From an uncultured Gemmatimonadota bacterium (GTDB lineage: Bacteria; 4572-55): a stretch of DNA of 64,000 bases. Of this stretch, positions 15,521 to 52,421 are shown piece after piece. The stretch spans positions 6,604 through 70,603 of the forward strand of contig CAYOLL010000002.1 of NCBI GenBank assembly GCA_964404765.1, in the 5' to 3' direction. Positions within the stretch are counted from its first letter, which is position 1; every line of letters begins with the position of its first letter. Below the pieces are notes generated by a model. It did no database searches, was not told the origin of the DNA, and was given only the letters and a program-made list of their open reading frames with translations. The position numbers and the translations under genes are program-made.

Positions 15521-15985
15521 TTATTCCGGGCGCAAAGCTTCAATAATTCGCCATTCCTCCGCTGTCACCGGCTGAATAGACAGCCGGCTGCCACGCTGAA
15601 GCAACATCATTTCCTCCAGACCGGCCGTCCGCTTCAACTCCTCGCGAGTAATGTGCGGCTCAAAGCCGCGCACCGGCGTAATATCAACCATATACCAGCG
15701 TGGATTATCCGGCGTACTTTTGGGATCAAAGTAGTGGCTTTCCGGATTCCAGGCGTGATGATCGGGATAGCCGGCCCGAACAACGCGCACAATGCCGGCA
15801 ATACAGGTCGGCTCCGTGCTGCTGTGGTAAAAGAAAACCAGATCATTCAGCTTGACCTGATCGCGCAAAAAGTTGCGCGCCTGATAGTTCCGCACGCCTT
15901 CCCAACCGGCAATTTGCCTGGGCGATTTTAGCAAATCGCTCCATGAAAAAGTGTCCGGTTCCGTTTTAAAAAGCCAATATGTCAT
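15521..15985 (-). CDS. EVE (PUA-like) domain protein
   Basis: 'MTYWLFKTEPDTFSW...GVRNYQARNFLRDQVKLNDLVFFYHS...' matches the EVE/DUF55 family. The start was taken at the internal Met, 15985. Confidence 0.8.
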   Translation of the reverse strand: MTYWLFKTEPDTFSWSDLLKSPRQIAGWEGVRNYQARNFLRDQVKLNDLVFFYHSSTEPTCIAGIVRVVRAGYPDHHAWNPESHYFDPKSTPDNPRWYMVDITPVRGFEPHITREELKRTAGLEEMMLLQRGSRLSIQPVTAEEWRIIEALRPE

Positions 15986-15994
15986 TGTGCAATC

Positions 15995-16058
15995 TCCAGC
16001 GTAAAAAATAAAGTCGGGAAGATCGTCGCCTGTTGGCAATGATAATCTTCCCGACTTT
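15995..16058 (-). terminator. Rho-independent terminator downstream of the response-regulator gene
   Basis: Perfect 14-bp stem aaagtcgggaagat/atcttcccgacttt, followed on the minus strand by a T-rich tract (TTTATTTTTT). Confidence 0.6.
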
Positions 16059-20265: not shown

Positions 20266-20377
20266 CCCGGTAATTAAACGACTTCCGGCTTGACATCCTA
20301 CGGTTAAAAGCTATTTTGACACCGCTATTTAAAATTTGCCCCGCAGAGTCCGTCGCGAAAAAACCGGAAAGGGAAAT

Positions 20378-20791
20378 ATGACCGTCCACGATCTGCCGAC
20401 TTTGAATGCCACGCTCAATACAATCAGCGCTTTTGCTTTAGGAGCGGGTTTTATATTTATCAAACGTGGCCAGCGTGAATATCATCGCCGCGCCATGTTG
20501 GCCGCTTGCATTTGTTCACTGCTCTTTTTGACTTCGTATTTGATTTATCATCAGCAGGTTGGTTCAGTGCCTTACCCGCACCACGATTGGACGCGGCCGC
20601 TTTATTTTGCTATCCTGATCCCCCATGTTATATTGGCCGGAATTATGCTGCCATTTATTTTGGCGCTGCTCTGGCTGGCCTGGCACAATCGGTTTGATCG
20701 GCATAAACGTTTGGCGCGTTGGGTTTTTCCGGGCTGGGTTTTTGTATCAGTATCAGGAATTGCGATTTACTTTATGTTATACCAATTGTAA
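20378..20791 (+). CDS. DUF420-family membrane protein
   Basis: Four TM helices. 'MTVHDLPTLNATLNTISAFALGAGFIFIKRGQREYHRRAMLAACI' fits DUF420. The start was taken at ATG 20378, which follows the RBS ggaaaggg. Confidence 0.7.
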   Translation: MTVHDLPTLNATLNTISAFALGAGFIFIKRGQREYHRRAMLAACICSLLFLTSYLIYHQQVGSVPYPHHDWTRPLYFAILIPHVILAGIMLPFILALLWLAWHNRFDRHKRLARWVFPGWVFVSVSGIAIYFMLYQL

Positions 20792-20808
20792 AACGCGTTG
20801 ATAAGAAA

Positions 20809-22113
20809 TCAGTTCTTCGGCACAAACACCAGCGGATATATAACATCCACATCACCGCCGATAATCGGCTGAAATCGCCAGCGCTTAACGACTTCCAGCA
20901 CGCAGCCTTCCAGTTCCGGCACATTCAGGGAAGATGACGCCGTTTTTGCCTGCTGCACCTTGCCATTCGTCAGAATCGTAAATTCCAATTCAATTTTGCC
21001 CGCCAGATCGCTTTGACGCTTCAGGCTCTGATTAAAACAATAACGAATGCCTTCCATCTGCGACATAATGGCTTTGCGAATCGCGTCCGGAGAGCGGAAA
21101 GCGCTACTGGAACCTTCGCCTGCCACTTCCGACGGCTTATCAAAGGCGATATCGCCGGCCCGCTCCATCTTGATTGACGATGTTTTGTCCGGGACGATGG
21201 GTTTTTTGACCACGTCGCCAAAAGCGCTATCGCCATAGGAGGCAACGGTATAGGTGTTGTCGCCCCACTCGGCATCACCGCCGCCGCCCGGCTGATCCGT
21301 GTTGCCAAAGGCGCTTTCCATTTTATCGGCAAAGCCAAACCCAACGACACTGGCATCGGCGTTTTGGCCAATCTTTAAAGCGCCCAAAACTCCCAAACGG
21401 CTGATATCACGCGGCGCGGAAGGTTGTCCGCCGCTCTTTTTTTCTGCGGGCGTGCCCTTGTCGCCGCTCACGGCATCGCCGGCGGCCGGCGGGGTGTAAA
21501 TGGACGGCGGCGGGCCAATTTCGCTGTATTTGGTGATTTTAATGGTTTTCACCAGCGGCGCTTTTTCCGTAAATAATAAAATGGCGAGAAAAAATCCAAG
21601 TGTAAGCGCTAAATGGAGGGTAACCGAAACGGTTAACCCGCTGAACATGTTTTTGCGATAGATACGTTTAAGTTCGGGCGCGCCATACAAATTTTGGTCA
21701 ACTTCATGCGATTCCGCAGACAGATCAATTTTCGGAGAATAGTACGATTTTGGAAAACGGTAGTCAAAGTCGAAAGTCAGACCGGCCCACTGCAATTGGC
21801 CGTATTGCCCTTCCTTAAGCTGCATGGGGAACGAGCCGTTTTTGGATTGCAAAAAACCGTGCATCTTTAAGCCGGCAAAATCAAAACGAACATCTTCTTT
21901 GACAACTTCGCCGGCGGCCTCTGCAGGAATATTAAGAAAAATATTTTTTCCGGAAGTATTTACCAGCGTGTAGCGTCGGGGGATTTTTGTGCTGATATAA
22001 ACAAAGTCCGCGCCGGATTGGCTACCAACGGACAAGCCTTTATGGTCGACAAAGAAGTTGCGGCGCAATTGATCGCGCTCACTAACTTTAACAAACAGAA
22101 TGGGTTTCGTCAT
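20809..22113 (-). CDS. Membrane-anchored protein with an AgmX/PglI-type C-terminal domain (gliding-motility-associated family)
   Basis: C-terminus 'IRKAIMSQMEGIRYCFNQSLKRQSDLAGKIELEFTILTNGKVQQAKTASSSLNVPELEGCVLEVVKRWRFQPIIGGDVDVIYPLVF' follows the AgmX/PglI C-terminal-domain pattern. A single TM helix sits mid-protein, followed by a Gly/Pro-rich linker. Confidence 0.55.
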   Translation of the reverse strand: MTKPILFVKVSERDQLRRNFFVDHKGLSVGSQSGADFVYISTKIPRRYTLVNTSGKNIFLNIPAEAAGEVVKEDVRFDFAGLKMHGFLQSKNGSFPMQLKEGQYGQLQWAGLTFDFDYRFPKSYYSPKIDLSAESHEVDQNLYGAPELKRIYRKNMFSGLTVSVTLHLALTLGFFLAILLFTEKAPLVKTIKITKYSEIGPPPSIYTPPAAGDAVSGDKGTPAEKKSGGQPSAPRDISRLGVLGALKIGQNADASVVGFGFADKMESAFGNTDQPGGGGDAEWGDNTYTVASYGDSAFGDVVKKPIVPDKTSSIKMERAGDIAFDKPSEVAGEGSSSAFRSPDAIRKAIMSQMEGIRYCFNQSLKRQSDLAGKIELEFTILTNGKVQQAKTASSSLNVPELEGCVLEVVKRWRFQPIIGGDVDVIYPLVFVPKN

Positions 22114-22228
22114 CTTAAAAAATTCATTCGTCCATAGTCACAAGAGTTGATTATTTACAGTATTTAAAAAATTAGCAAAAAGCATACCATGTTGATGCGC
22201 TTACGCCGGGCGTGTTCCGAATGTTCCT

Positions 22229-22408
22229 TCAAGTGGCAGCGTCTTGAGGCACCGGCGCGCCATCGGGCAAAAAGCCGACCACGTTGTCCGGCAGCACTTC
22301 CGGCGAGGAGCGTATGTTCACATTGCCGTCGGCCACAACCCGACCAATGGTGATGGCCTCGGCAGTGGCGGCGGTCAACAGGCACAGCAGCAGGAATAAA
22401 GAGCGCAT
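22229..22408 (-). pseudogene. Truncated paralog of the secreted SH3b-like protein family (59 codons)
   Basis: Encodes 'MRSLFLLLCLLTAATAEAITIGRVVADGNVNIRSSPEVLPDNVVGFLPDGAPVPQDAAT*'. It is about 90% identical at the DNA level to the 5' end of the 23336-24319 gene. It is absent from the ORF track because it is shorter than 60 aa. Confidence 0.55.
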
Positions 22409-22434
22409 GGGTAAATCCTCCGGGGTAAAGGGCG

Positions 22435-22463
22435 AATTTCCAAATCTCGCAGATTTGGAAATT
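22435..22463. promoter_or_regulatory. Perfect 13-3-13 palindrome upstream of SH3b-family copy 1; a candidate operator
   Basis: aatttccaaatct-cgc-agatttggaaatt lies about 27 bp upstream of the ATG on the minus strand. An identical palindrome occurs at 25271-25299. Confidence 0.4.
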
Positions 22464-22535
22464 CTATGGCGTTGAGTGTTATTTGACTGGCAGTGCGGAT
22501 GAATTTCGTGCCCGTCCGGGCGTTATTTGAGGAGG

Positions 22536-22874
22536 CTAAATAATGCGAACCCCGGTTCGTAAAATCTCGTGCACAAAGGGTCGGGTGTCATCAAAATCCG
22601 CTTTGGCAAAGGGATGCGGTTCAATTCGGGTGTCTATTTTTAAGCCAAGTTTCATCAAATGAACTTGCATGTCATAGCGATCCGCCAGTTCATCAAAAAC
22701 AACGGCCAAGTCAATATCGCTGTCTTCATGTGCGCCCCCGCGAGCGTATGAGCCAAACAGATAGGCCCGGCTGATTTTCAACTGCTGGCTTTGCAAAAAT
22801 TCCAGGTAATTGGTTATGATGGCAATAGCCTGACTTTGATCCATACGCGCAACTCCTCGATTCGGGTGACCCAT
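22536..22874 (-). CDS. Minimal nucleotidyltransferase (MNT-type; HEPN/MNT module partner)
   Basis: 'LFGSYARGGAHEDSDIDLAVVF' is the GS...D.D motif of the pol-beta-type nucleotidyltransferase fold. The alternative start is 22844. Confidence 0.8.
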   Translation of the reverse strand: MGHPNRGVARMDQSQAIAIITNYLEFLQSQQLKISRAYLFGSYARGGAHEDSDIDLAVVFDELADRYDMQVHLMKLGLKIDTRIEPHPFAKADFDDTRPFVHEILRTGVRII

Positions 22875-23209
22875 TCAGTGGTAAACTCCGGCGTGCACTT
22901 TTTGTAAAACTCCATCTTTTCCGTATCATAACGGGCATTGATATTGAAAGTGGTGATCACGGCCAATTGCTCCTTTTGTTCGTCGCTGACCGGCAGGTTT
23001 GATTTTTCCGCCAGCCGGGCCAGTTGATGCGTGAACGGCGGGTATAAATCCACCGTTTGCACGTAATATGCTTTGAGCAATTTCTCTATCACCAGATGCC
23101 CGACAAACAAACACCAGTGGTAGTCTTCTTTTTCGTACAAATGGCGCATCGTATTGAAATCCAGATCAGAACTGGCGCTCCAATATGTCACAAGTTCATC
23201 TTTGGTCAT
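22814..23209 (-). CDS. HEPN-domain protein (partner of the adjacent nucleotidyltransferase)
   Basis: '...HWCLFVGHLVIEKLLKAYYV...' is a typical HEPN helix. It is 131 aa and overlaps the MNT gene by 30-60 nt, as expected for a co-translated toxin-antitoxin-like pair. Confidence 0.7.
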   Translation of the reverse strand: MTKDELVTYWSASSDLDFNTMRHLYEKEDYHWCLFVGHLVIEKLLKAYYVQTVDLYPPFTHQLARLAEKSNLPVSDEQKEQLAVITTFNINARYDTEKMEFYKKCTPEFTTEWVTRIEELRVWIKVRLLPS

Positions 23210-23335
23210 TTAAATTCATCTCGGTTTTTGGTTTTGGGCGCAAAGTTTAGCAACGTAATTTCTATTCTACCGACGCTGAGCGTTATCGTCAACAGAAAAT
23301 ACCGCAGCGCCTGCAGCCGGTCAATGCCTTCGGCA

Positions 23336-24319
23336 TTATTTGACAGGCGTTTCGGTGCGGGAGATGCGGACGTATTCGCTGCCGTTGAAATCGTAAGCTT
23401 CATTTATTCGAAGGTATTGATGAGGTTCATCATTGTAAGGGTCATCATCTTCTTTTGCTACGACCTCAATTTCAAGCTCCAAATCTTCATCAAGATTTTT
23501 AAACAACCCACGCCCTCTGTATAAGTATCCCTCACATCCACCATATGTGCGGAAATTTCCACCACATGATTTGTAATCACCATCAATAAAGCGATATACT
23601 CCCCAACTACACCCACTGCAATCATCCCCATCGTCACAATTTTCCAAAATCAACTCTTTTGCAGAATCACCTACCAAATTTCTGGCAGCAATAAAAGCAG
23701 AACGTACTCCATAGCACCCTTCGTCACACGTTCGCGGCGAACCAATAGCTATTCGTTTATATGATGAAGATGTTCCTATTTTATCTAAAATGCACGGCAT
23801 TGAAATATAGCGAGCTGTGTCTGAAGTATCTGAACCGCAACTGATTCCATATTCTACAAAAACTTCGTAATCCTCATCAAAGTCAACATTTACAAGCTTT
23901 AGCGCGTTTATCGATGTATTAGATTGAGAGGTCTCACAATATGGGTTTTTCGCATCGATTTTTTCAGCGGTTTCAATAAGATCGTTATAAGAATAAAATT
24001 CGGTCACTTCGATTAGTTCTAACGAAAAGCCAAATATCCAGTCATTCCCGACCGGGTCGGCACAACTGGGACACTTTTTTCGTCCGGTCAAGTCATACCA
24101 ATAATCCACCACGCCGTCAATCGTATCCGGTTGGGCGGTTTTGTCAAAAATAATCACCGTCGCGCCATCGGGCAAAAAGCCGACCACGTTGTCCGGCCGC
24201 ACTTCCGGCGTGGAACGCACATTTACATTGCCGTCGGCCACGACCCGGCCAACGGTAATGGCTTCGGCGGTGGCGTCAATCAACAGGCAGAGCAGCAGGA
24301 ATAAAGAACGCATGGACAA
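23336..24319 (-). CDS. Secreted Cys-rich protein with an N-terminal bacterial SH3-like domain; the full-length member of the local paralog family
   Basis: Signal peptide 'MSMRSLFLLLCLLIDATAEA'. 'ITVGRVVADGNVNVRSTPEVRPDNVVGFLPDGATVIIF' fits the SH3b pattern. There are about 20 Cys residues downstream and an acidic C-terminal tail. Confidence 0.6.
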   Translation of the reverse strand: MSMRSLFLLLCLLIDATAEAITVGRVVADGNVNVRSTPEVRPDNVVGFLPDGATVIIFDKTAQPDTIDGVVDYWYDLTGRKKCPSCADPVGNDWIFGFSLELIEVTEFYSYNDLIETAEKIDAKNPYCETSQSNTSINALKLVNVDFDEDYEVFVEYGISCGSDTSDTARYISMPCILDKIGTSSSYKRIAIGSPRTCDEGCYGVRSAFIAARNLVGDSAKELILENCDDGDDCSGCSWGVYRFIDGDYKSCGGNFRTYGGCEGYLYRGRGLFKNLDEDLELEIEVVAKEDDDPYNDEPHQYLRINEAYDFNGSEYVRISRTETPVK

Positions 24320-24336
24320 ATCCTCCAGAGTCGGCT

Positions 24337-24711
24337 TTATCGGTTTAGATACGCATAAACGATTTCGTCCAAAATATCTTCCAGCGTCGGCCTGAGGCTC
24401 TCTTCAGTCCCATTGGGCGTGTGTTTGTGATCAGGATAGGTTGAGATTTGCGGAAAATGCGGCGTGTTATCGTAGCGAAAAATCATCTGCTTGTTCTTTG
24501 TCTGATAATGATAGCGATAGGAAACCCGTTCGATTCGTGTATCGAGTTGCACATACTCGGTGACATGCAACTCGCTTTCATCCAAAAAGATAATTTTGCC
24601 CTCAAACAAGCTGTCTTTTTCGGAACGCTTATCTTTTTGAAAATGAACCTGCCGAATAAACGGGTGGCGCAGCGCCAGTTCAATCTCGGCAAAATAATCA
24701 TCCAGCGTCAT
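24337..24711 (-). CDS. Small uncharacterized protein, downstream member of a 4-nt-overlapping two-gene module (toxin-antitoxin-like)
   Basis: 124 aa, His-rich ('RYDNTPHFPQISTYPDHKHTPNG'). It overlaps the upstream 93-aa gene by ATGA. It lies inside the variable paralog island. Confidence 0.5.
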   Translation of the reverse strand: MTLDDYFAEIELALRHPFIRQVHFQKDKRSEKDSLFEGKIIFLDESELHVTEYVQLDTRIERVSYRYHYQTKNKQMIFRYDNTPHFPQISTYPDHKHTPNGTEESLRPTLEDILDEIVYAYLNR

Positions 24712-24989
24712 AGCCGAACCTCGCCCAAACGCTGACAGTCCGCCGTCAGCCGCTGAAAAATTTGGAACTCAATGGCCCAGCGCATGATGTCGGCGTCATC
24801 ACCCATCTCGCCCCGTTGGTAGCGTTGATAAAAATCGGCGGATGAGAGGGCATACTTTCGTTCGTAATGACGCAAATGCTTTTGGGTGGTTTTGAGACTC
24901 GCCTGCAAAAGCTGCGCTTCCCGGTTTAGCGCGCCTTGCACCAAACGCACGGTTTGCGCATCATTCAATTGCAATTGTAAAGCGGGCAT
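24708..24989 (-). CDS. Small uncharacterized protein, upstream member of the two-gene module
   Basis: 93 aa, helical and charged. Its stop overlaps the start of 24337-24711. Confidence 0.5.
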   Translation of the reverse strand: MPALQLQLNDAQTVRLVQGALNREAQLLQASLKTTQKHLRHYERKYALSSADFYQRYQRGEMGDDADIMRWAIEFQIFQRLTADCQRLGEVRL

Positions 24990-25152
24990 TTTTGCTTCCT
25001 TTGAGTTAGCGGTTTTCTTGAATTTTAGCCGTCATTCAAGATAAACAAGTTGCTTTTCTTACCAAACACCTTTTATACGCCATCGGGCAAAAAGCCGACC
25101 ACATTGCCCGGCCGCACTTCCGGCGTGGAGCGCACATTCACATTGCCGTCGG

Positions 25153-25245
25153 CTACCACCCAATGGTTATCGCCTCCGCCCTTCGACTTAGTTCAGGACA
25201 AGCCAGGGCGGTCAACAGGCAGAGCAGCAGGAATACAGAACGCAT
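25153..25245 (-). pseudogene. Disrupted 5' fragment of a third SH3b-family paralog
   Basis: 'MRSVFLLLCLLTALACPELSRRAEAITIGW*'. The signal peptide is conserved, then a ~35-bp insertion/substitution introduces a stop. The same upstream palindrome is present. Confidence 0.5.
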
Positions 25246-25270
25246 GGGCAAATCCTTCGGATACAGGGCG

Positions 25271-25299
25271 AATTTCCAAATCTCGCAGATTTGGAAATT
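25271..25299. promoter_or_regulatory. Second copy of the perfect 13-3-13 palindrome (candidate operator)
   Basis: aatttccaaatct-cgc-agatttggaaatt, identical to 22435-22463. It is followed by a conserved ~25-bp block ttatttgacaggcgattcggtgtgg, also seen at 23336-23360 and 22478-22500. Confidence 0.4.
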
Positions 25300-25411
25300 C
25301 TGTGACGCTTGGGCGTTATTTGACAGGCGATTCGGTGTGGAATATCCAATGTATTCCATGTCGTTAACGTCGTAAAGTTCTTTACGTTGAAAGTGACGCG
25401 GGAGAGCGCCC

Positions 25412-26560
25412 TCAATTTTCCAGGTCCGCTAAGCGACAGATGAATCCCCAGCCGCCGCCAAGTTCGCTGATCGCCAATAGTAAGTCATTGCGTCCCTTTT
25501 TCAATGGCAGATAGACAGCATCGTTTTCCGGGTTGACGATGCCAAGAAAGCCGGGATCACGAAAGCTTTGGGCGCTTCGGCCGCGGTAGAGAATTGTGTC
25601 ATTCAGGAATACGCTCACATCATCGCTATAACCAAGATAGAGCTTTTTCATTTGGTCGCGGTCAGAATTGATCGTGGTTCGCGCATAAACAAGCCGTATC
25701 CCGGGTTGGAGTTCCAGCCGTTTGGAAAAGTCGCTCTGAAAGGAGACTCGCGGATGCGGGGCCTCGCGGTAGCGATAAATGACCACAAGACCGGGCGCTT
25801 CCGCTTCCACATCCTGCCAGGGCATGGTATCCCTTTCGGCGGCAGAAAGCGGGCGTTCCGGGTTACGTGCGAGCGCGTCGTACGAAGGCGACAGACTCCA
25901 CTTCGTCAGTGTGCCGGGTGGCATTGGCGGCAATTGCCGCTCCCAGGTCGCGTCCGGGGTTGGCCGTATCTCAAAATTCGAGAAATAGGTTGCGCCGATC
26001 AGGACAGCCAGCGCCACCTGCCCTTTCTGCAAGCCGCTTTTCAGATCGTTCATCACAAACGCCGGTTTATCCATGTCCTTGACATAAAGCTTTGCCTGCG
26101 CCCCGGTCACCGCCAGCCGCAGGTGAAACCAAACATCTTTAGGAATATCTACCGGGCCGGTAAAGCCAGGCCCATTGTAGAGTTGCCAGTTTAGCCCGGT
26201 GTTGAGCACGGGGGTATATTGCAGGGCGTCGGGCAGGCCGGATTTGTGCTGGCGCAAATACACCCATTCCGTCGTCGCGCCATCGTCGCCAATCCGAAAC
26301 TGGATCCCAAAGAATCCGCGGCTGGCCGGGGTGGCCACGTCCACATCAATAACGCCGTCACGCAGTTCAAAGTCTTTCAATATCGCGGCCCCGCCATTGA
26401 GGAAGAGGCACTTACGACCTTGATACTCAACCGTCTTGGCTTCGCCTTGCAGATCCCAACGCAAGGAGTCGGCAGGAACGGCCAGCGTCGGCAATGACTG
26501 GGAATGGGCTGTGGACGTCGCCAGAAGAACATAACTCCAAAAGATAAGATGTCGAAACAT
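25412..26560 (-). CDS. Secreted protein with a DUF1080-like (3-keto-disaccharide hydrolase / laminin-G-like) N-terminal domain
   Basis: Signal peptide 'MFRHLIFWSYVLLATSTAHS'. 'KDFELRDGVIDVDVATPASRGFFGIQFR' fits the DUF1080 pattern. Confidence 0.45.
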   Translation of the reverse strand: MFRHLIFWSYVLLATSTAHSQSLPTLAVPADSLRWDLQGEAKTVEYQGRKCLFLNGGAAILKDFELRDGVIDVDVATPASRGFFGIQFRIGDDGATTEWVYLRQHKSGLPDALQYTPVLNTGLNWQLYNGPGFTGPVDIPKDVWFHLRLAVTGAQAKLYVKDMDKPAFVMNDLKSGLQKGQVALAVLIGATYFSNFEIRPTPDATWERQLPPMPPGTLTKWSLSPSYDALARNPERPLSAAERDTMPWQDVEAEAPGLVVIYRYREAPHPRVSFQSDFSKRLELQPGIRLVYARTTINSDRDQMKKLYLGYSDDVSVFLNDTILYRGRSAQSFRDPGFLGIVNPENDAVYLPLKKGRNDLLLAISELGGGWGFICRLADLEN

Positions 26561-26650
26561 CGCTTGCCTCCATGTCGGTGGTGGGTTGTAATGGCAGAAT
26601 GAATTTCCAGGTTATCCAGATCCACGCACACCCGCAGTTCGCGCAAAAGT

Positions 26651-26902
26651 TCATGCCGAGAAGGCCGCTTTTCTGACGTGAATATCCGGGTTTTGTCGGT
26701 CGGTGTGCAGCACAAACATTTCCCGCTGCGGCTTTTCGCGGTGCAATTTAGCATAGCCTTTCATGGCTGTTTCGCCATCGGGAAAGGTGTCCACAACGGC
26801 AATCTGCTCCAGCACGCGAAGATCGTTTTCCGTCCGCGCCTGAATCGCTTCGATCAGCAGCCATTGGTGGGGGAATTTTTGCCGGGCGTCTTCCCAGGTC
26901 AT
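26651..26902 (-). CDS. Small hypothetical protein (83 aa)
   Basis: ORF with a plausible start. No recognisable family. Confidence 0.35.
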   Translation of the reverse strand: MTWEDARQKFPHQWLLIEAIQARTENDLRVLEQIAVVDTFPDGETAMKGYAKLHREKPQREMFVLHTDRQNPDIHVRKAAFSA

Positions 26903-27080
26903 GCGTTGTTCTCCTTGTTTGCATCAAGTTGCGATGCCATTACAAAATCCTCTCATGGCACGAAAATGCACTTGCGCAGTTTGCGTTTAGCCGTGTGAAT
27001 CGCCAAAAAGTCGACCTTGATTTTTTTCAGCACAGGCACAACAGCAGGCAAAGCGGCGCATGGACAAACCTTTGGGTGAA

Positions 27081-29477
27081 TTACAGCAAGGCGGCTGTCT
27101 TATCGGCAACAGCGCTTAGCCGGCGCTGCTCCAGATAATTCGGGATACTCAGGCTTGGCAAGTCGGGCCGAAGCTGTGGCGCTGCAAAGGTCAATGCCGG
27201 ATCCGTCGGCGGCAGAAAGCGACCGGTCGCCGCCATTTGTACGGTTTGGTGATTGATTGTTAAAGGGTCTTTTTGCGTGGGCCGGTAGTGGGCTTCAATA
27301 TGCCGATCTTTTTCTAAAATGACTAAATGCTCGTAAATTTGACGGTCCGCTCCCGGCCATCGCAAACGAACAAAAACATGCTCATGCAAGCCGTGGCCTT
27401 CCAACTTTACCGTAACATGGCTATTTTCCTGGGTGAACTCAAATCGAATCTGCTCCTGCCGGCCGATGTTCAAAAGCCCGCCCGCCTTCGTAAAGCGCTC
27501 CGGCAAACGTGGCGCAACCCCAATCTCACGCGTCAGCATATTCGGCTGGATGCCCAAAAAGTCCTGCTGAAAATTGCGCACAAACTCTGCGACCGACCAG
27601 GCCTGCGAATAGGCGCCGGTCAACTGCAACTTGCCATTGGGCTTGGGCAAGGGTTCCACTAACTCGGTTAGCGAGCCGGGCATTCCTGTATTCAGGATTT
27701 GGTCCGCCAAATTTTGGGCTAACGCAAAGGCCAGATTTTCGTAACCAAAACGAACCAAGGCGCTGATGACCGGCCCGGTCAGCCATTGCCAGCACAAACC
27801 ATTGTGATATGCCGCATCAAAATGATAAATTTGACCGTGGTGATAAGGGTGAAATTCATCGTCCTGCGGATCGAGCGAGGCCAAGCCATGGGGATAGGTC
27901 AGGCGCGTTACTACTTGTTTTAAAATGCCGTGCTGGATAGCCGGATCATCAATCAAATCAGCCAACAGCGGCACGGTCAGGGCAAATATCTGGTTAGGCC
28001 GAATCTGTCGGTTTGGCGCATCCGCCGCGGTCAGATGATCGTAAAGAGCGTTGGTTTGCGGATCATAAAACCGAGCCATAAAATTGGCTTTGAGTTCCGC
28101 CGCCATTCCCTGCCAAATGGCCTCTTCCCGACCATGTCCGAGACAATGGGCAATTCTGGCGCTGACCTTAAGCTGGGTGAACCACAGGGCCTGAATTTCG
28201 ACCGCGCGATTGCCGCGCGGCGACCAGGCTTGCTGCCCCTGAATACGCGCATCCATCCAGGTGTCGGCAAGGTCGTGCGTCAAGAAGCCATCCTTATCAA
28301 CGAAATTTGTTTTTGCGCCATCAATCGCCCGTTTGATAATCGGAAACATTTGCTCGGCCAGACGCAGATCGCCTGTGTAGCAAATGTACTCATAAATCTC
28401 GCGAATAAACCAGGGCGTGGCATCCGTGGTATTATAGATGATGTCCGTTGGTGACGCAATCCGGTTTGGGATGCGGCCATTAAGCGGATCGCTTGCATTA
28501 TCTTTTTGATTTTGCGCGAAGTTGCTTATAATTTCCTGCGCAGCCGTAAACTGCCCGGCGACAAGACAAATTCCCGGCAAGGCAATAAAGGTATCACGTC
28601 CCCAGCACTGATGAAACCAGGGCAGACCCGCCCACAGCCCCGGCCCGTTTTGTTGCACCAGCAAATCATTTCCGGAAATCAGACACCATTGCAGCGCCCG
28701 GTCATAATCGCTCAGGTTGGTCGAAAAAGCGGTTTGTGCCAGTAAATTGCTGACCCGATTGGCCCGCGCGGAACGAAAGGCGCTGATGTCCGGCCTGGTA
28801 TCGGCAGCTTCATTCGTCTGGAAAATAAAATCTATTTTGACTTCGCTGACCGTGCCAAAATCCAGCCAACCCAAAATGCCTTTTTGACAAGAAAACTCCG
28901 TTGGCAGCTCCGCCTCACCCGGCGTGCCGGTAACCCATTGCAGCGCCGATCCACAAATATGGATGATCTGGCCGGTTGCCAAATCGGCAAAATGTAGCTC
29001 GTTTTCCGTTGCCGGCTCGATTTTCGGGGCGACGCCTGAATCCAGAAATGCCGGAATAAGCTGCACGGATCGTGGCCGATTCAATTGCAGCCGGACGACA
29101 AAGCCCGCTTTGCCCCGCAAGACCGTGAGCGTTTCCGTATAATCGTCGTACGTCCGCTGCAAACCGTCCGGACTCAATTCAATTGCCGGCGCATCGTGCA
29201 AGACTGAGACGCCATCAACCCGCCAGATAAAATCGATCAGAAAGCGGCGGCCAGCCAGCGTATAGCCGCCGTAAGTTGTGTTATAGCCGGTAGTTTGACC
29301 TTCCCAAAAACCGCCCACACCATCGACAAAGGCGTAGACGCGGGTTGGTTGCTTTTCGAGTCGAAAATTCAACAAATCGGGATGATTAGCGCTCATTGGC
29401 TTCCTATACGGACAAATGCCTGATTCAGTCGCAGAAAAATTCGTCATAAAAACAGGCGAAAGATACGGCAGGGACAT
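27081..29477 (-). CDS. Amylo-alpha-1,6-glucosidase / glycogen-debranching-enzyme-like glycoside hydrolase (GDE_C family)
   Basis: 'GLPWFHQCWGRDTFIALPG' is the hallmark of GDE_C family six-hairpin glycosidases. The protein is 798 aa. glgC lies 3.6 kb away. Confidence 0.75.
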   Translation of the reverse strand: MSLPYLSPVFMTNFSATESGICPYRKPMSANHPDLLNFRLEKQPTRVYAFVDGVGGFWEGQTTGYNTTYGGYTLAGRRFLIDFIWRVDGVSVLHDAPAIELSPDGLQRTYDDYTETLTVLRGKAGFVVRLQLNRPRSVQLIPAFLDSGVAPKIEPATENELHFADLATGQIIHICGSALQWVTGTPGEAELPTEFSCQKGILGWLDFGTVSEVKIDFIFQTNEAADTRPDISAFRSARANRVSNLLAQTAFSTNLSDYDRALQWCLISGNDLLVQQNGPGLWAGLPWFHQCWGRDTFIALPGICLVAGQFTAAQEIISNFAQNQKDNASDPLNGRIPNRIASPTDIIYNTTDATPWFIREIYEYICYTGDLRLAEQMFPIIKRAIDGAKTNFVDKDGFLTHDLADTWMDARIQGQQAWSPRGNRAVEIQALWFTQLKVSARIAHCLGHGREEAIWQGMAAELKANFMARFYDPQTNALYDHLTAADAPNRQIRPNQIFALTVPLLADLIDDPAIQHGILKQVVTRLTYPHGLASLDPQDDEFHPYHHGQIYHFDAAYHNGLCWQWLTGPVISALVRFGYENLAFALAQNLADQILNTGMPGSLTELVEPLPKPNGKLQLTGAYSQAWSVAEFVRNFQQDFLGIQPNMLTREIGVAPRLPERFTKAGGLLNIGRQEQIRFEFTQENSHVTVKLEGHGLHEHVFVRLRWPGADRQIYEHLVILEKDRHIEAHYRPTQKDPLTINHQTVQMAATGRFLPPTDPALTFAAPQLRPDLPSLSIPNYLEQRRLSAVADKTAALL

Positions 29478-31790: not shown

Positions 31791-32681
31791 ATGAACGAAA
31801 AACGAACATTGGTCAGCTTTGATTGGGCGATCAAAAATATTCTGCAGGATAAAGCCAATTATGATGTGCTGGAAGGCTTTCTCAGCACGCTTTTGGAAAA
31901 AGACATCAAAATCCTTTCTATTATGGAAAGCGAGAGTAATCAAGAACATCAATCCGATAAATTTAATCGGGTGGATTTGGTTGTAGAAGATGAACACGGC
32001 GAAATCTTGATCATTGAAGTGCAAAATGATCGAGAAATCCATTACCTGGAGCGGCTTTTATATGGCAGTTCCAAAACGATTGTGGAACGTATAGAATCGG
32101 GAGAATCATACGAAAATGTGAAAAAGGTTATCTCGATCAACATTCTGTATTTTCTGTTGGGCGATGGCGAGACCGATTATATCTATAGGGGCAAGACTGA
32201 TTTTTATGGATTCAATGATCATAAAAAGCTGGAGTTCCGGCATCGCAAAAAGGATGCGGTTTTAGGCAATGGCATTAAGACGAGTCAGAGCATTTTTCCG
32301 GAATATTATCTGATCGAAGTAGAACGTTTTCATAATCAAATCCGAAAGGACATTGACGAGTGGGTGTATTTCTTTAAGAATTCGGAAATCAAGCCGGAAT
32401 TTAAATCCAAAAATATCCAAAAAGCCAAAGAAAAACTGGATTTGCTAAAGATGACGCCGGAGCAGCGCAAGGCTTATGAGCGGTATAAAGAAAATCGCCG
32501 AAGTGAAAAGGAAGCTATTGATACAGCTAAAGAAGAAGGCCGTGAGGAAAGAGATGTGGAAATCGTTCGTGCATCCTTGAAGGAAGGCTTATCAATTGAG
32601 CAAATTTCTCGAATCACCCATTTAACGATTGCGCAAATAAACAGTATATCGGCGGAAGTCCTCAATTATCGCACGATCTGA
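31791..32681 (+). CDS. Rpn-family recombination-promoting nuclease / putative transposase (PD-(D/E)xK, PDDEXK_2)
   Basis: 'FDWAIKNIL...DKFNRVDLVVEDEHGEILIIEVQNDRE' is the D...E.Q core of YhgA/Rpn-like nucleases. The C-terminal helix is 'LSIEQISRITHLTIAQINSI'. Confidence 0.7.
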   Translation: MNEKRTLVSFDWAIKNILQDKANYDVLEGFLSTLLEKDIKILSIMESESNQEHQSDKFNRVDLVVEDEHGEILIIEVQNDREIHYLERLLYGSSKTIVERIESGESYENVKKVISINILYFLLGDGETDYIYRGKTDFYGFNDHKKLEFRHRKKDAVLGNGIKTSQSIFPEYYLIEVERFHNQIRKDIDEWVYFFKNSEIKPEFKSKNIQKAKEKLDLLKMTPEQRKAYERYKENRRSEKEAIDTAKEEGREERDVEIVRASLKEGLSIEQISRITHLTIAQINSISAEVLNYRTI

Positions 32682-52103: not shown

Positions 52104-52421
52104 TCATGCGGGGCACAAAGCGGCGTGATTTCGGTTTCCCAACCATTTTTTGAGTGAGGTTGAACTCTCGCCCGAACGCCGTCCGGCCAGAATTCCGGCA
52201 ACAGTCAAATCCTCGTCCAAATCCGGCCAATGAATGTACGCACCGTCGCCGATGATCCGATAATTGTCGCGCTCTTGCGGTGTGCCGTGCCATAAGCGCG
52301 GATACCACATCAATGGCGCAATGATCGTCCGACCGTCGGTCAAGTCGATTTGCAATGCGTCATCGCTGATCTGAACTTGCCGGGCGTGCGCGTCTTGGAT
52401 TTCATTGATTAAAGAACTCAT
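52104..52421 (-). CDS. DUF2442-family protein
   Basis: 'ISDDALQIDLTDGRTIIAPLMWYPRLWHGTPQERDNYRIIGDGAYIHWPDLDEDLTVAGIL' is the DUF2442 signature. Confidence 0.75.
   Translation of the reverse strand: MSSLINEIQDAHARQVQISDDALQIDLTDGRTIIAPLMWYPRLWHGTPQERDNYRIIGDGAYIHWPDLDEDLTVAGILAGRRSGESSTSLKKWLGNRNHAALCPA

Follow-up and report, generated by a model that had tools for sequence, protein, structure and literature searches.

A 64-kb stretch of DNA from an uncultured Gemmatimonadota bacterium (the window, which here always means the whole stretch that was analysed) contains an islet in which the repeated ends of a secreted-protein gene, designated copies A to D, are interleaved with two toxin–antitoxin (TA)-type gene pairs and with further genes. 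All features of the islet are on the minus strand, between the stop codon (position 27081) of a gene for a 798-amino-acid (aa) amylo-alpha-1,6-glucosidase (Pfam GDE_C, 4e-75; minus strand) and the start (22113) of a gene for a 434-aa TonB_C/AgmX-type protein (20809–22113, minus strand), which bounds the islet downstream. Read 5′ to 3′ on the minus strand, the islet consists of a possible gene start (D), an 83-aa gene, a 382-aa gene, the remnant of a gene 3′ end, a palindrome, a truncated gene start (C), the pair tumA–tumE and the intact gene B. These are followed by a hairpin and a promoter-like site, a HEPN gene, an MNT gene, two short 3′-end remnants, a second palindrome and another truncated gene start (A). 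The remaining genes of the window are mostly housekeeping genes.

Repeated Gene Starts

The repeated gene start, which comprises a ribosome-binding site (RBS), a signal peptide and an SH3b-like N-terminus, is found on the minus strand in copies A (22250–22421), B (24155–24326, the start of the sole intact gene) and C (25078–25256). For A and B the identity is 87.8% over 172 ungapped nucleotides (nt; E 3e-57), against 79.7% across 256 columns including indels for the A and C units (E 6e-60) and 77% for B and C (E 5e-36). A 33-nt start motif occurs three times, against 0 expected in shuffles, and nowhere else in the 64 kb. An earlier note, made from the letters of this DNA and a list of its open reading frames (ORFs), had proposed at least four homologous 5′ ends. 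The homology holds for A, B and C at 77–88% identity, above the 70% at which the note had set its limit, but the fourth copy is marginal. This copy D (27032–27073, minus strand) would consist of an RBS, an ATG and the beginning of a signal peptide, and begins 6 nt past the stop codon of the amylo-alpha-1,6-glucosidase gene. It is the best non-self match in 64 kb to a profile of the three other copies and is on the correct strand (nhmmer E 0.0018; blastn E 0.27), and is thus regarded as plausible, not proven. A further partial copy at 22175–22225 was rejected (nhmmer E 1.1, not significant).

Copies A and C are both truncated. Copy A, located in blastn alignments, retains an intact ORF of 59 codons (22229–22408, minus strand), as the earlier note had recognised; it lies 115 nt upstream of the TonB_C/AgmX-type gene and is recorded in public data as protein P0010. 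Copy C, likewise correctly described as disrupted (25153–25245), has a 4-nt deletion that causes a frameshift and a stop at 25153, and breaks off after FLPDG. It also carries an extra 21-nt segment encoding LACPELSRRAEA. Because LACPELSRRAEA matches the signal-peptide variant of the homologue P0002, this segment is not damage.

A terminator-like hairpin with a T-run (CGGCCGG.CAA.GTGGTCG GCTTTTTGCC) is located within the conserved 5′ coding region, at 24181–24199 and 25096–25114 (minus strand) and at the equivalent site in A. It lies just upstream of both breakpoints, ending 18 nt (copy C) and 26 nt (the equivalent in copy A) upstream of the truncation points, and could mark a hotspot of breakage or act as a premature terminator.

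Junction Units and the Former Array

Two junction units survive, each with the 3′ end of one gene, 14 nt, a hairpin, 12 nt, an RBS and the 5′ end of the next gene. The hairpin is encoded by a perfect palindrome, GAATTTCCAAATCT-GCG-AGATTTGGAAATTC (14-bp perfect arms, 3-nt loop), which is present in the 64 kb only at 25270–25300 (copy 1) and 22434–22464 (copy 2), with 0 occurrences expected, in keeping with the intergenic palindrome that had been noted before. Copy 1 is located 24 nt upstream of the start codon of copy C and ~13 nt upstream of its RBS. The two palindromes are identical at 31/31 positions although the flanking non-coding bases differ, which would occur by chance in only ~2% of cases at 88% identity and implies constraint on the palindrome. 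Predicted RNA folding of the junctions gives z = −2.9 and −3.7 (copy 1 junction, −30.8 kcal/mol, z = −3.7). The palindrome is ~12 nt from the RBS and is not followed by a U-tract, from which we infer an intercistronic RNA hairpin; Rfam has no structured RNA match in 22000–27200. Spacing of ~14 nt, the 31-nt perfect hairpin and ~12 nt before the next RBS is so short that it leaves no room for a promoter between the genes of the array.

The gene 3′ end upstream of palindrome copy 1 is the remnant of a lost paralog (25308–25384, minus strand), which matches the 3′ end of B (23328–23406) at 75–76% over 77–79 nt (E 3e-7; nhmmer E 3e-24). It contains one 1-nt frameshift and translates roughly as ...YDVNDMEY...PVK*. 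The repeat had been said to carry the last ~25 bp of the previous gene, and the resemblance proves to be longer than that. Two short 3′-end remnants (22472–22533, minus strand), each with (G/C)TCAAATAAC, are found at 22520–22531, directly after the MNT stop codon, and at 22472–22491, which is part of junction unit A and falls within the 256-nt A–C alignment. The motif GTCAAATAAYRC occurs five times, against 1.25 expected, with four of the five occurrences in the locus. The succession of 3′ end, palindrome and next 5′ end in the junction units is direct evidence for a former head-to-tail tandem array of paralogs that has now decayed.

The copies themselves are old. Between A and B there are 11.5 synonymous and 7.5 non-synonymous differences, i.e., a synonymous divergence (dS) of 0.32 and a non-synonymous divergence (dN) of 0.068 (dN/dS ~0.2), which means that most of the divergence accrued under purifying selection; A and B were not fresh duplicates but paralogs or alleles that had long remained functional. 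Accordingly, the array part of the earlier proposal of tandem duplication followed by decay stands, but recent duplicates that decay neutrally are refuted by these values (dS 0.32, dN 0.07). A, B and C are roughly equidistant, with alternating patches of similarity (informative sites: AC|B 10, BC|A 9, AB|C 13), a pattern consistent with old divergence plus gene conversion.

Units A (22258–22491) and C (25078–25328) align end to end (E 6e-60), share the palindrome at 31/31 positions and have truncation points no more than 8 nt apart, as would be expected had the ~2.8-kb segment between them (tumAE, B and HEPN/MNT) been inserted or segmentally duplicated in one composite event between two copies of a ~240-nt unit that was already truncated and consisted of a 3′ remnant, the palindrome and an incomplete 5′ end, possibly by Campbell-type recombination of a circular intermediate. 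However, the equidistance of the shared coding part means that A and C are not sisters, the P0002-type signal-peptide segment is present in C and absent from A, and the divergence is old. In addition, no recombinase or replication gene was found among the ORFs scanned in and near the segment. A single event of this kind is therefore improbable.

The Intact Gene B and Its Protein Family

Copy B (23336–24326, minus strand) is the sole intact paralog and encodes a 325-aa protein (P0001). The earlier note had correctly identified an intact gene here (23336–24319, 327 aa), but its start is the ATG at 24313, preceded by an RBS at 24321–24326, and not the TTG at 24319. In the protein, a signal peptide is followed by an SH3b-like N-terminus and by ~230 aa that form an all-beta C-terminal domain. 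The SH3b-like assignment made from the letters is favoured by weak phmmer matches to the multi-SH3b-like repeat proteins P0011 and P0012 (E 1e-8 to 1e-9), but matches to Pfam SH3_3 (PF08239) are sub-threshold (18.1 bits for B and 20.2 bits for P0002, E 0.003 and 7e-4; cut-off 27). The C-terminal region had also been called Cys-rich, which is true of B (13 Cys in the whole protein) but not of the family, in which homologues have 3–9 Cys at positions that are not conserved. B has no domain in Pfam, NCBIfam, PADLOC or PHROG and no sequence relative in the PDB, and the AlphaFold2 models are poor (pLDDT 40 and 53); a periplasmic or secreted, cell-wall-associated role can only be guessed from the SH3b-like domain. 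A search of 5.8 billion clustered proteins, in which HMMER was run exhaustively on 1.84 billion representatives, returned only four full-length members of the family (B, P0002, P0009 and P0014) plus fragment A.

The composition of B is uneven. Its GC content at third codon positions (GC3) is 0.70 in codons 1–60, 0.15–0.40 in codons 101–300 and 0.60 in codons 301–320, compared with 0.50–0.64 for genes of the window, i.e., the ends are host-like (0.6–0.7) and the centre is not (~0.28). In parallel, B is 97% identical to its closest homologue, P0002, at residues 16–73 (the first ~58 mature residues) and 78% identical at residues 301–323 (the last 23), and the identity is 30% at residues 74–300; the centre is no closer to P0002 than to the remoter P0009 or P0014. 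B is therefore a mosaic, recombinant gene, with host-like ends and a highly divergent, low-GC centre. This mosaic, together with the P0002-type signal peptide of copy C, suggests that recombination in the conserved ends has shuffled divergent cores at least once within this very rare family of secreted proteins.

The same observations bear on the model of the earlier note, of a hypervariable island with cassettes swapped between conserved flanks; spelled out, the islet would be active, and the conserved ends and palindrome would act as homology flanks for the exchange of cassettes and gene bodies between strains by homologous recombination. The parts that survive in the islet are indeed the conserved parts of the family, and the foreign composition of the centre of B makes at least one body replacement via crossovers in the conserved ends probable. 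A and C are also broken at nearly the same position, and three different defence/TA-type inserts and one horizontally transferred gene lie within 5 kb. However, tumAE has a 5′ end on either side and HEPN/MNT has a 3′ end on either side, whereas a simple swap predicts a 5′ and a 3′ flank; flanks that differ by 12–23% are a poor substrate for frequent homologous exchange; and a distant family member, P0014, is encoded by a single-copy gene without repeats in an AT-rich genome (L008, 3704–7380). The evidence does not require ongoing cassette exchange, and we consider this model rather unlikely.

Genes for a Por_Secre_tail protein and a TumA/TumE pair, as well as a short carbonic-anhydrase ORF (117 aa), are found 2 kb downstream of the P0014 gene in L008. 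The TumA/TumE neighbour was not retained as a meaningful link, because its TumE is only 24% identical to that of the window and the proximity is probably a coincidence.

B no longer has a native upstream junction, and its ATG now lies 23 nt behind the tumE stop codon; it is therefore probably co-transcribed with tumAE and expressed from that transcript, as judged from its position. Downstream of B, consensus scans indicate a terminator-like hairpin (23301–23317) and then a promoter-like site, TTGACG-17-TAGAAT (23264–23292), ahead of the HEPN gene (together 23264–23317, minus strand).

Inserted Genes

The tumA gene (24708–24989, minus strand) encodes a 93-aa antitoxin (NCBIfam TumA, 5.2e-12; PADLOC PDC-M44A, 9e-13) and is immediately upstream of tumE (24337–24711, minus strand), which encodes a 124-aa toxin (PF20126, 7.3e-24, 84 bits against a cut-off of 23.4; PADLOC PDC-M44B, 9.5e-23); the two genes overlap by 4 nt. 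These matches give a name to the second overlapping TA-like module (24337–24989) that had been noticed before. TumE–TumA has been shown by experiment to be a TA family that targets translation (PMC10584680). The proteins of the window score below the NCBIfam cut-offs (TumE, DUF6516, 76.8 bits against 90; TumA, 45.8 bits against 100) and are thus divergent members of the family rather than equivalogs. Copy C ceases to resemble A and B at 25078 (after ...CCCGATGGCG), and B begins to match A and C again at ~24326–24331, 5–10 nt past the tumE stop codon, so that the insert spans ~24332–25077 and comprises ~746 nt including an 88-nt leader. With TumE genes annotated on plasmids of Nostoc, the TumE of the window shares ~33% identity. 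A plasmid or phage origin of the cassettes was considered and dropped, as relatives of TumE on cyanobacterial plasmids reach only ~33% identity and the HEPN protein has none.

This part of the islet has been recovered independently. A Logan contig from run SRR8670878, an independent assembly, matches a stretch of 1167 nt through tumA, tumE and B at 100% identity, and covers both the tumE–B junction and the joint between GC-rich and AT-rich sequence inside B. It thereby bears on the concern that the locus is an assembly artefact, in which strain variants of one locus were threaded serially through a shared repeat during metagenome assembly. The concern arises because the source is evidently a metagenome-assembled genome, as the proteins are known from a single 94-kb NCBI contig only, and because variable loci are prone to mis-joins. 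In addition to the reproduced 1167 nt, the longest exact matches between copies are 25–37 nt, below or near the smallest k-mers of metagenome assemblers, and the copies differ at many positions, as true paralogs would. An artefact is therefore highly improbable.

The second cassette contains a gene for a 131-aa HEPN-domain protein (22814–23209, minus strand; Pfam PF05168, 2e-15) followed by one for a 112-aa MNT-type nucleotidyltransferase (22536–22874, minus strand; PF18765, 5.7e-14; PF01909, 1.1e-12; PADLOC PDC-S09, 1.8e-14). The genes overlap at 22814–22874, and the HEPN gene is first; the HEPN/MNT pair given for 22536–23209 in the earlier note is thus well founded. The MNT protein scores 49.9 bits against NCBIfam MntA, below the cut-off of 60, and the HEPN protein has no NCBIfam match. 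As read from the translation, the HEPN protein is without the Rx4-6H RNase motif (...NINARYDTEKMEFYKK..., with no His 4–6 residues after R94 in NARYDTEKM), and the two proteins may be a non-catalytic or atypical pair. The insert comprises ~795 nt, starts ~9 nt after the B stop codon and ends a few nt from the MNT stop codon, with a second (C)TCAAATAACGCCC 3′-end motif at its downstream edge. Both cassettes have a leader of ~90–120 nt and end 0–10 nt after the last stop codon.

Two further genes, flanked by the possible 5′ remnant D and by the 3′ remnant at 25308–25384, add to what the earlier note had described inside the array. The first (26651–26902, minus strand; 83 aa) is the third defence-candidate gene of the islet, and resembles component A of the phage-defence candidate PDC-M08 (PADLOC PDLC04400, 5.5e-29); it has no match in Pfam, NCBIfam or PHROG. 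The second (25412–26560, minus strand) encodes a 382-aa secreted protein with 4716 homologues across many metagenomes, the best 120 of which are ~78–83% identical. No relative of the adjacent TonB-like gene is above 40–41% identity, and because of this difference the 382-aa gene was probably acquired horizontally. Its homologues elsewhere have ordinary chromosomal surroundings, in which the 83-aa gene is absent. The 382-aa protein has no Pfam family and a weak 3-keto-disaccharide hydrolase/DUF1080-like match (E 0.05). In its own right, it represents an unusually conserved uncharacterised family.

The inserts are not accompanied by inverted repeats, attC-like cores, an integrase or a transposase, as far as the locus and the ORFs scanned are concerned. 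A scan of genome contigs for relatives of the locus returned one weak, unrelated alphaproteobacterial SH3-like match, and scans of metagenomes and viruses returned none. No identical entry was returned for the HEPN protein, the 83-aa protein or fragment A.

A Probable Course From Paralog Array to Cassette Sink

We favour, with a confidence somewhat above even, the reading that the islet was once a polycistronic paralog array, and that after its decay it turned into a sink for horizontally acquired addictive cassettes, which replaced the bodies of paralogs. The original array would have held at least three, and probably four or five, paralogs of a lineage-restricted secreted protein. As the existence of sister copies makes the limits of the cassettes readable, each insert can be seen to sit, in all likelihood, where a paralog body (with or without its junction) should be; resident DNA would thus have been replaced, rather than a spacer having received an insertion. 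The inserts are compact pieces of foreign DNA that adjoin paralog remnants at their edges, with tumA–tumE between truncated copy C and the RBS of B, and HEPN–MNT between the 3′ end of B and another 3′ remnant. The earlier note had placed the cassettes exactly at the junctions between units; the two TA modules are at breaks between remnants, but apparently in place of deleted bodies and not simply between units.

The array would probably have been co-transcribed, with the hairpin as an intercistronic RNA element. Cassettes would then have been brought in by horizontal transfer and joined to the array by recombination, either illegitimate or anchored on homology, and each arrival would have deleted resident paralog DNA. 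TA loci are reported to stabilise chromosomal arrays against deletion (Szekeres et al., 2007, as summarised in the review PMC7167474). Because such stabilisation is documented for chromosomal arrays (PMC7167474), it can be suggested that the TA modules here persist through addiction, as deletion between direct repeats would remove a TA module and hence be counter-selected, and that they might thereby also preserve the repeats and B. Plasticity of TA insertion sites and decaying TA loci are both known (PMC7167474).

Several points weigh against this reading. The order of events and the replacement of a body by each insert are reconstructions from a single sequence. The truncation of A and C within 8 nt of each other (A ends 8 nt further on than C, after FLPDG-A) is not predicted by independent deletions and is the main unexplained observation; a shared breakpoint would have to stem from a common ancestor that was already truncated or from a hotspot of breakage. 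Copy D and the short remnants at 22472–22533 (nhmmer E 0.69) are individually weak. As for the inserts, the HEPN module may not be an active toxin, given the missing Rx4-6H motif, and the 83-aa gene is without a partner, PDC-M08B having not been found in neighbouring ORFs.

A bolder version, which has only a slender chance of being correct, is that the conserved ends and the palindrome form an integrase-free capture scaffold, i.e., a reusable landing pad for TA or defence cassettes and for divergent secreted-protein bodies. Incoming DNA would anchor on one of the conserved gene ends, 5′ or 3′, and replace the paralog body. How TA modules enter chromosomes is regarded by the field as unexplained (PMC7167474), and such a landing pad, if real, would give a rare nucleotide-level view of this step, since the sister copies allow the sequence before insertion to be inferred.

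With the array-turned-sink reading, the islet is a clean and well-delimited case of a known process, in which selfish TA cassettes colonise and then preserve a decaying, repeat-rich region. The paralog copies act as an internal reference for the pre-insertion sequence, by which the limits of the two TA cassettes are set to within ~10 nt. The locus would bear on the movement of TA modules if population turnover at the junctions were shown; it is otherwise a real but fairly ordinary patch of genome plasticity.

Comparison With Known Systems

Plastic or decaying chromosomal TA loci, such as ccdO157 in the folA–apaH interval of Escherichia coli and parDE in relA–mazG (PMC7167474), likewise consist of compact two-gene cassettes with their own leader in chromosomal gaps, are independent of the function of their neighbours, and lie beside decaying genes at spots that accept several elements. 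In contrast to these, the recipient here is a tandem paralog array in which junctions can be read within a few bases, and the inserts appear to replace gene bodies rather than occupy intergenic spacers.

TA cassettes in chromosomal (super)integron arrays, which are reported to work against large deletions between repeated sites (Szekeres et al., 2007, in PMC7167474), are likewise TA modules interleaved with direct repeats, and their loss by recombination between repeats is plausibly counter-selected. However, the repeats of the islet are gene ends and not recombination sites, and no cassette is bounded by palindromes on both sides. None of the ORFs scanned at the locus and in its surroundings encodes an IntI tyrosine recombinase, and no attC site is present; the sole palindrome is perfect, has two copies, does not have R″/R′ (RYYYAAC/GTTRRRY) cores and does not flank the cassettes. 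An integron was rejected on these grounds. Diversity-generating retroelements, shufflons and antigenic variation were rejected as well, since all repeats are direct and the ORFs scanned include neither a recombinase nor a reverse transcriptase; the silent copies, which hold only conserved parts, could not donate diversity.

Orphan arrays of polymorphic toxins (cdiA-CT/cdiI of contact-dependent inhibition, Rhs) also combine fragments of a parental gene in the same orientation with small two-gene modules between them. Their orphans keep a variable C-terminal toxin and an immunity gene, whereas the fragments in the islet are conserved 5′ and 3′ ends without payload, and the interleaved pairs are classical cytoplasmic TA modules. 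The likeness to polymorphic-toxin or orphan-module loci drawn by the earlier note is therefore not supported, the more so as no toxin or delivery domain was found in B.

In domain content and overlapping two-gene architecture, the two pairs match the HEPN–MNT (type VII, HepT/MntA) and TumE–TumA families, but both are below the NCBIfam equivalog cut-offs. Unlike HepT of type VII systems, the HEPN protein of the islet is of the PF05168 type, is encoded first in the operon and is without the Rx4-6H motif. Defence matches are limited to the PADLOC candidate families PDC-M08A, PDC-M44 and PDC-S09/M05A, one candidate being incomplete; PADLOC found no validated defence system in the locus, and the locus is not a validated defence island.

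Flanking Region and Other Genes of the Window

The nearest relatives of the TonB-like gene are 37–41% identical and non-syntenic, and an analysis of synteny through this flank was dropped for this reason. In these relatives (L005–L007), the TonB-like gene is preceded by Rrf2-ExbB-ExbD-ExbD on the same strand, downstream of DUF420 (L005, 6185–10932, compared with 20336–22113 in the window). The window retains DUF420 (64% identity) and the TonB-like gene (40%), the latter in inverted orientation relative to DUF420, unlike in the relatives, and has no Rrf2, ExbB or ExbD gene anywhere in its 64 kb. The absence of Rrf2-ExbB-ExbD-ExbD beside a retained DUF420 means that the islet coincides with a rearrangement breakpoint, in keeping with the array-turned-sink reading.

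A gene for a PD-(D/E)XK ‘transposase’ family protein of the Rpn/YhgA-like recombination-promoting nuclease type (31791–32681, plus strand; PF12784, 1e-26) is located ~4.7 kb from the islet and is the sole recombination-related gene seen near the locus. An EVE-domain protein (15521–16039, minus strand; 2.7e-53), of a family that reads modified bases, is encoded next to a response-regulator gene and is unconnected with the array. A small DUF2442 protein (52104–52421, minus strand; 7.7e-19) belongs to a family that is often one partner of two-gene TA-like pairs, and may represent another addiction-type module in the window.

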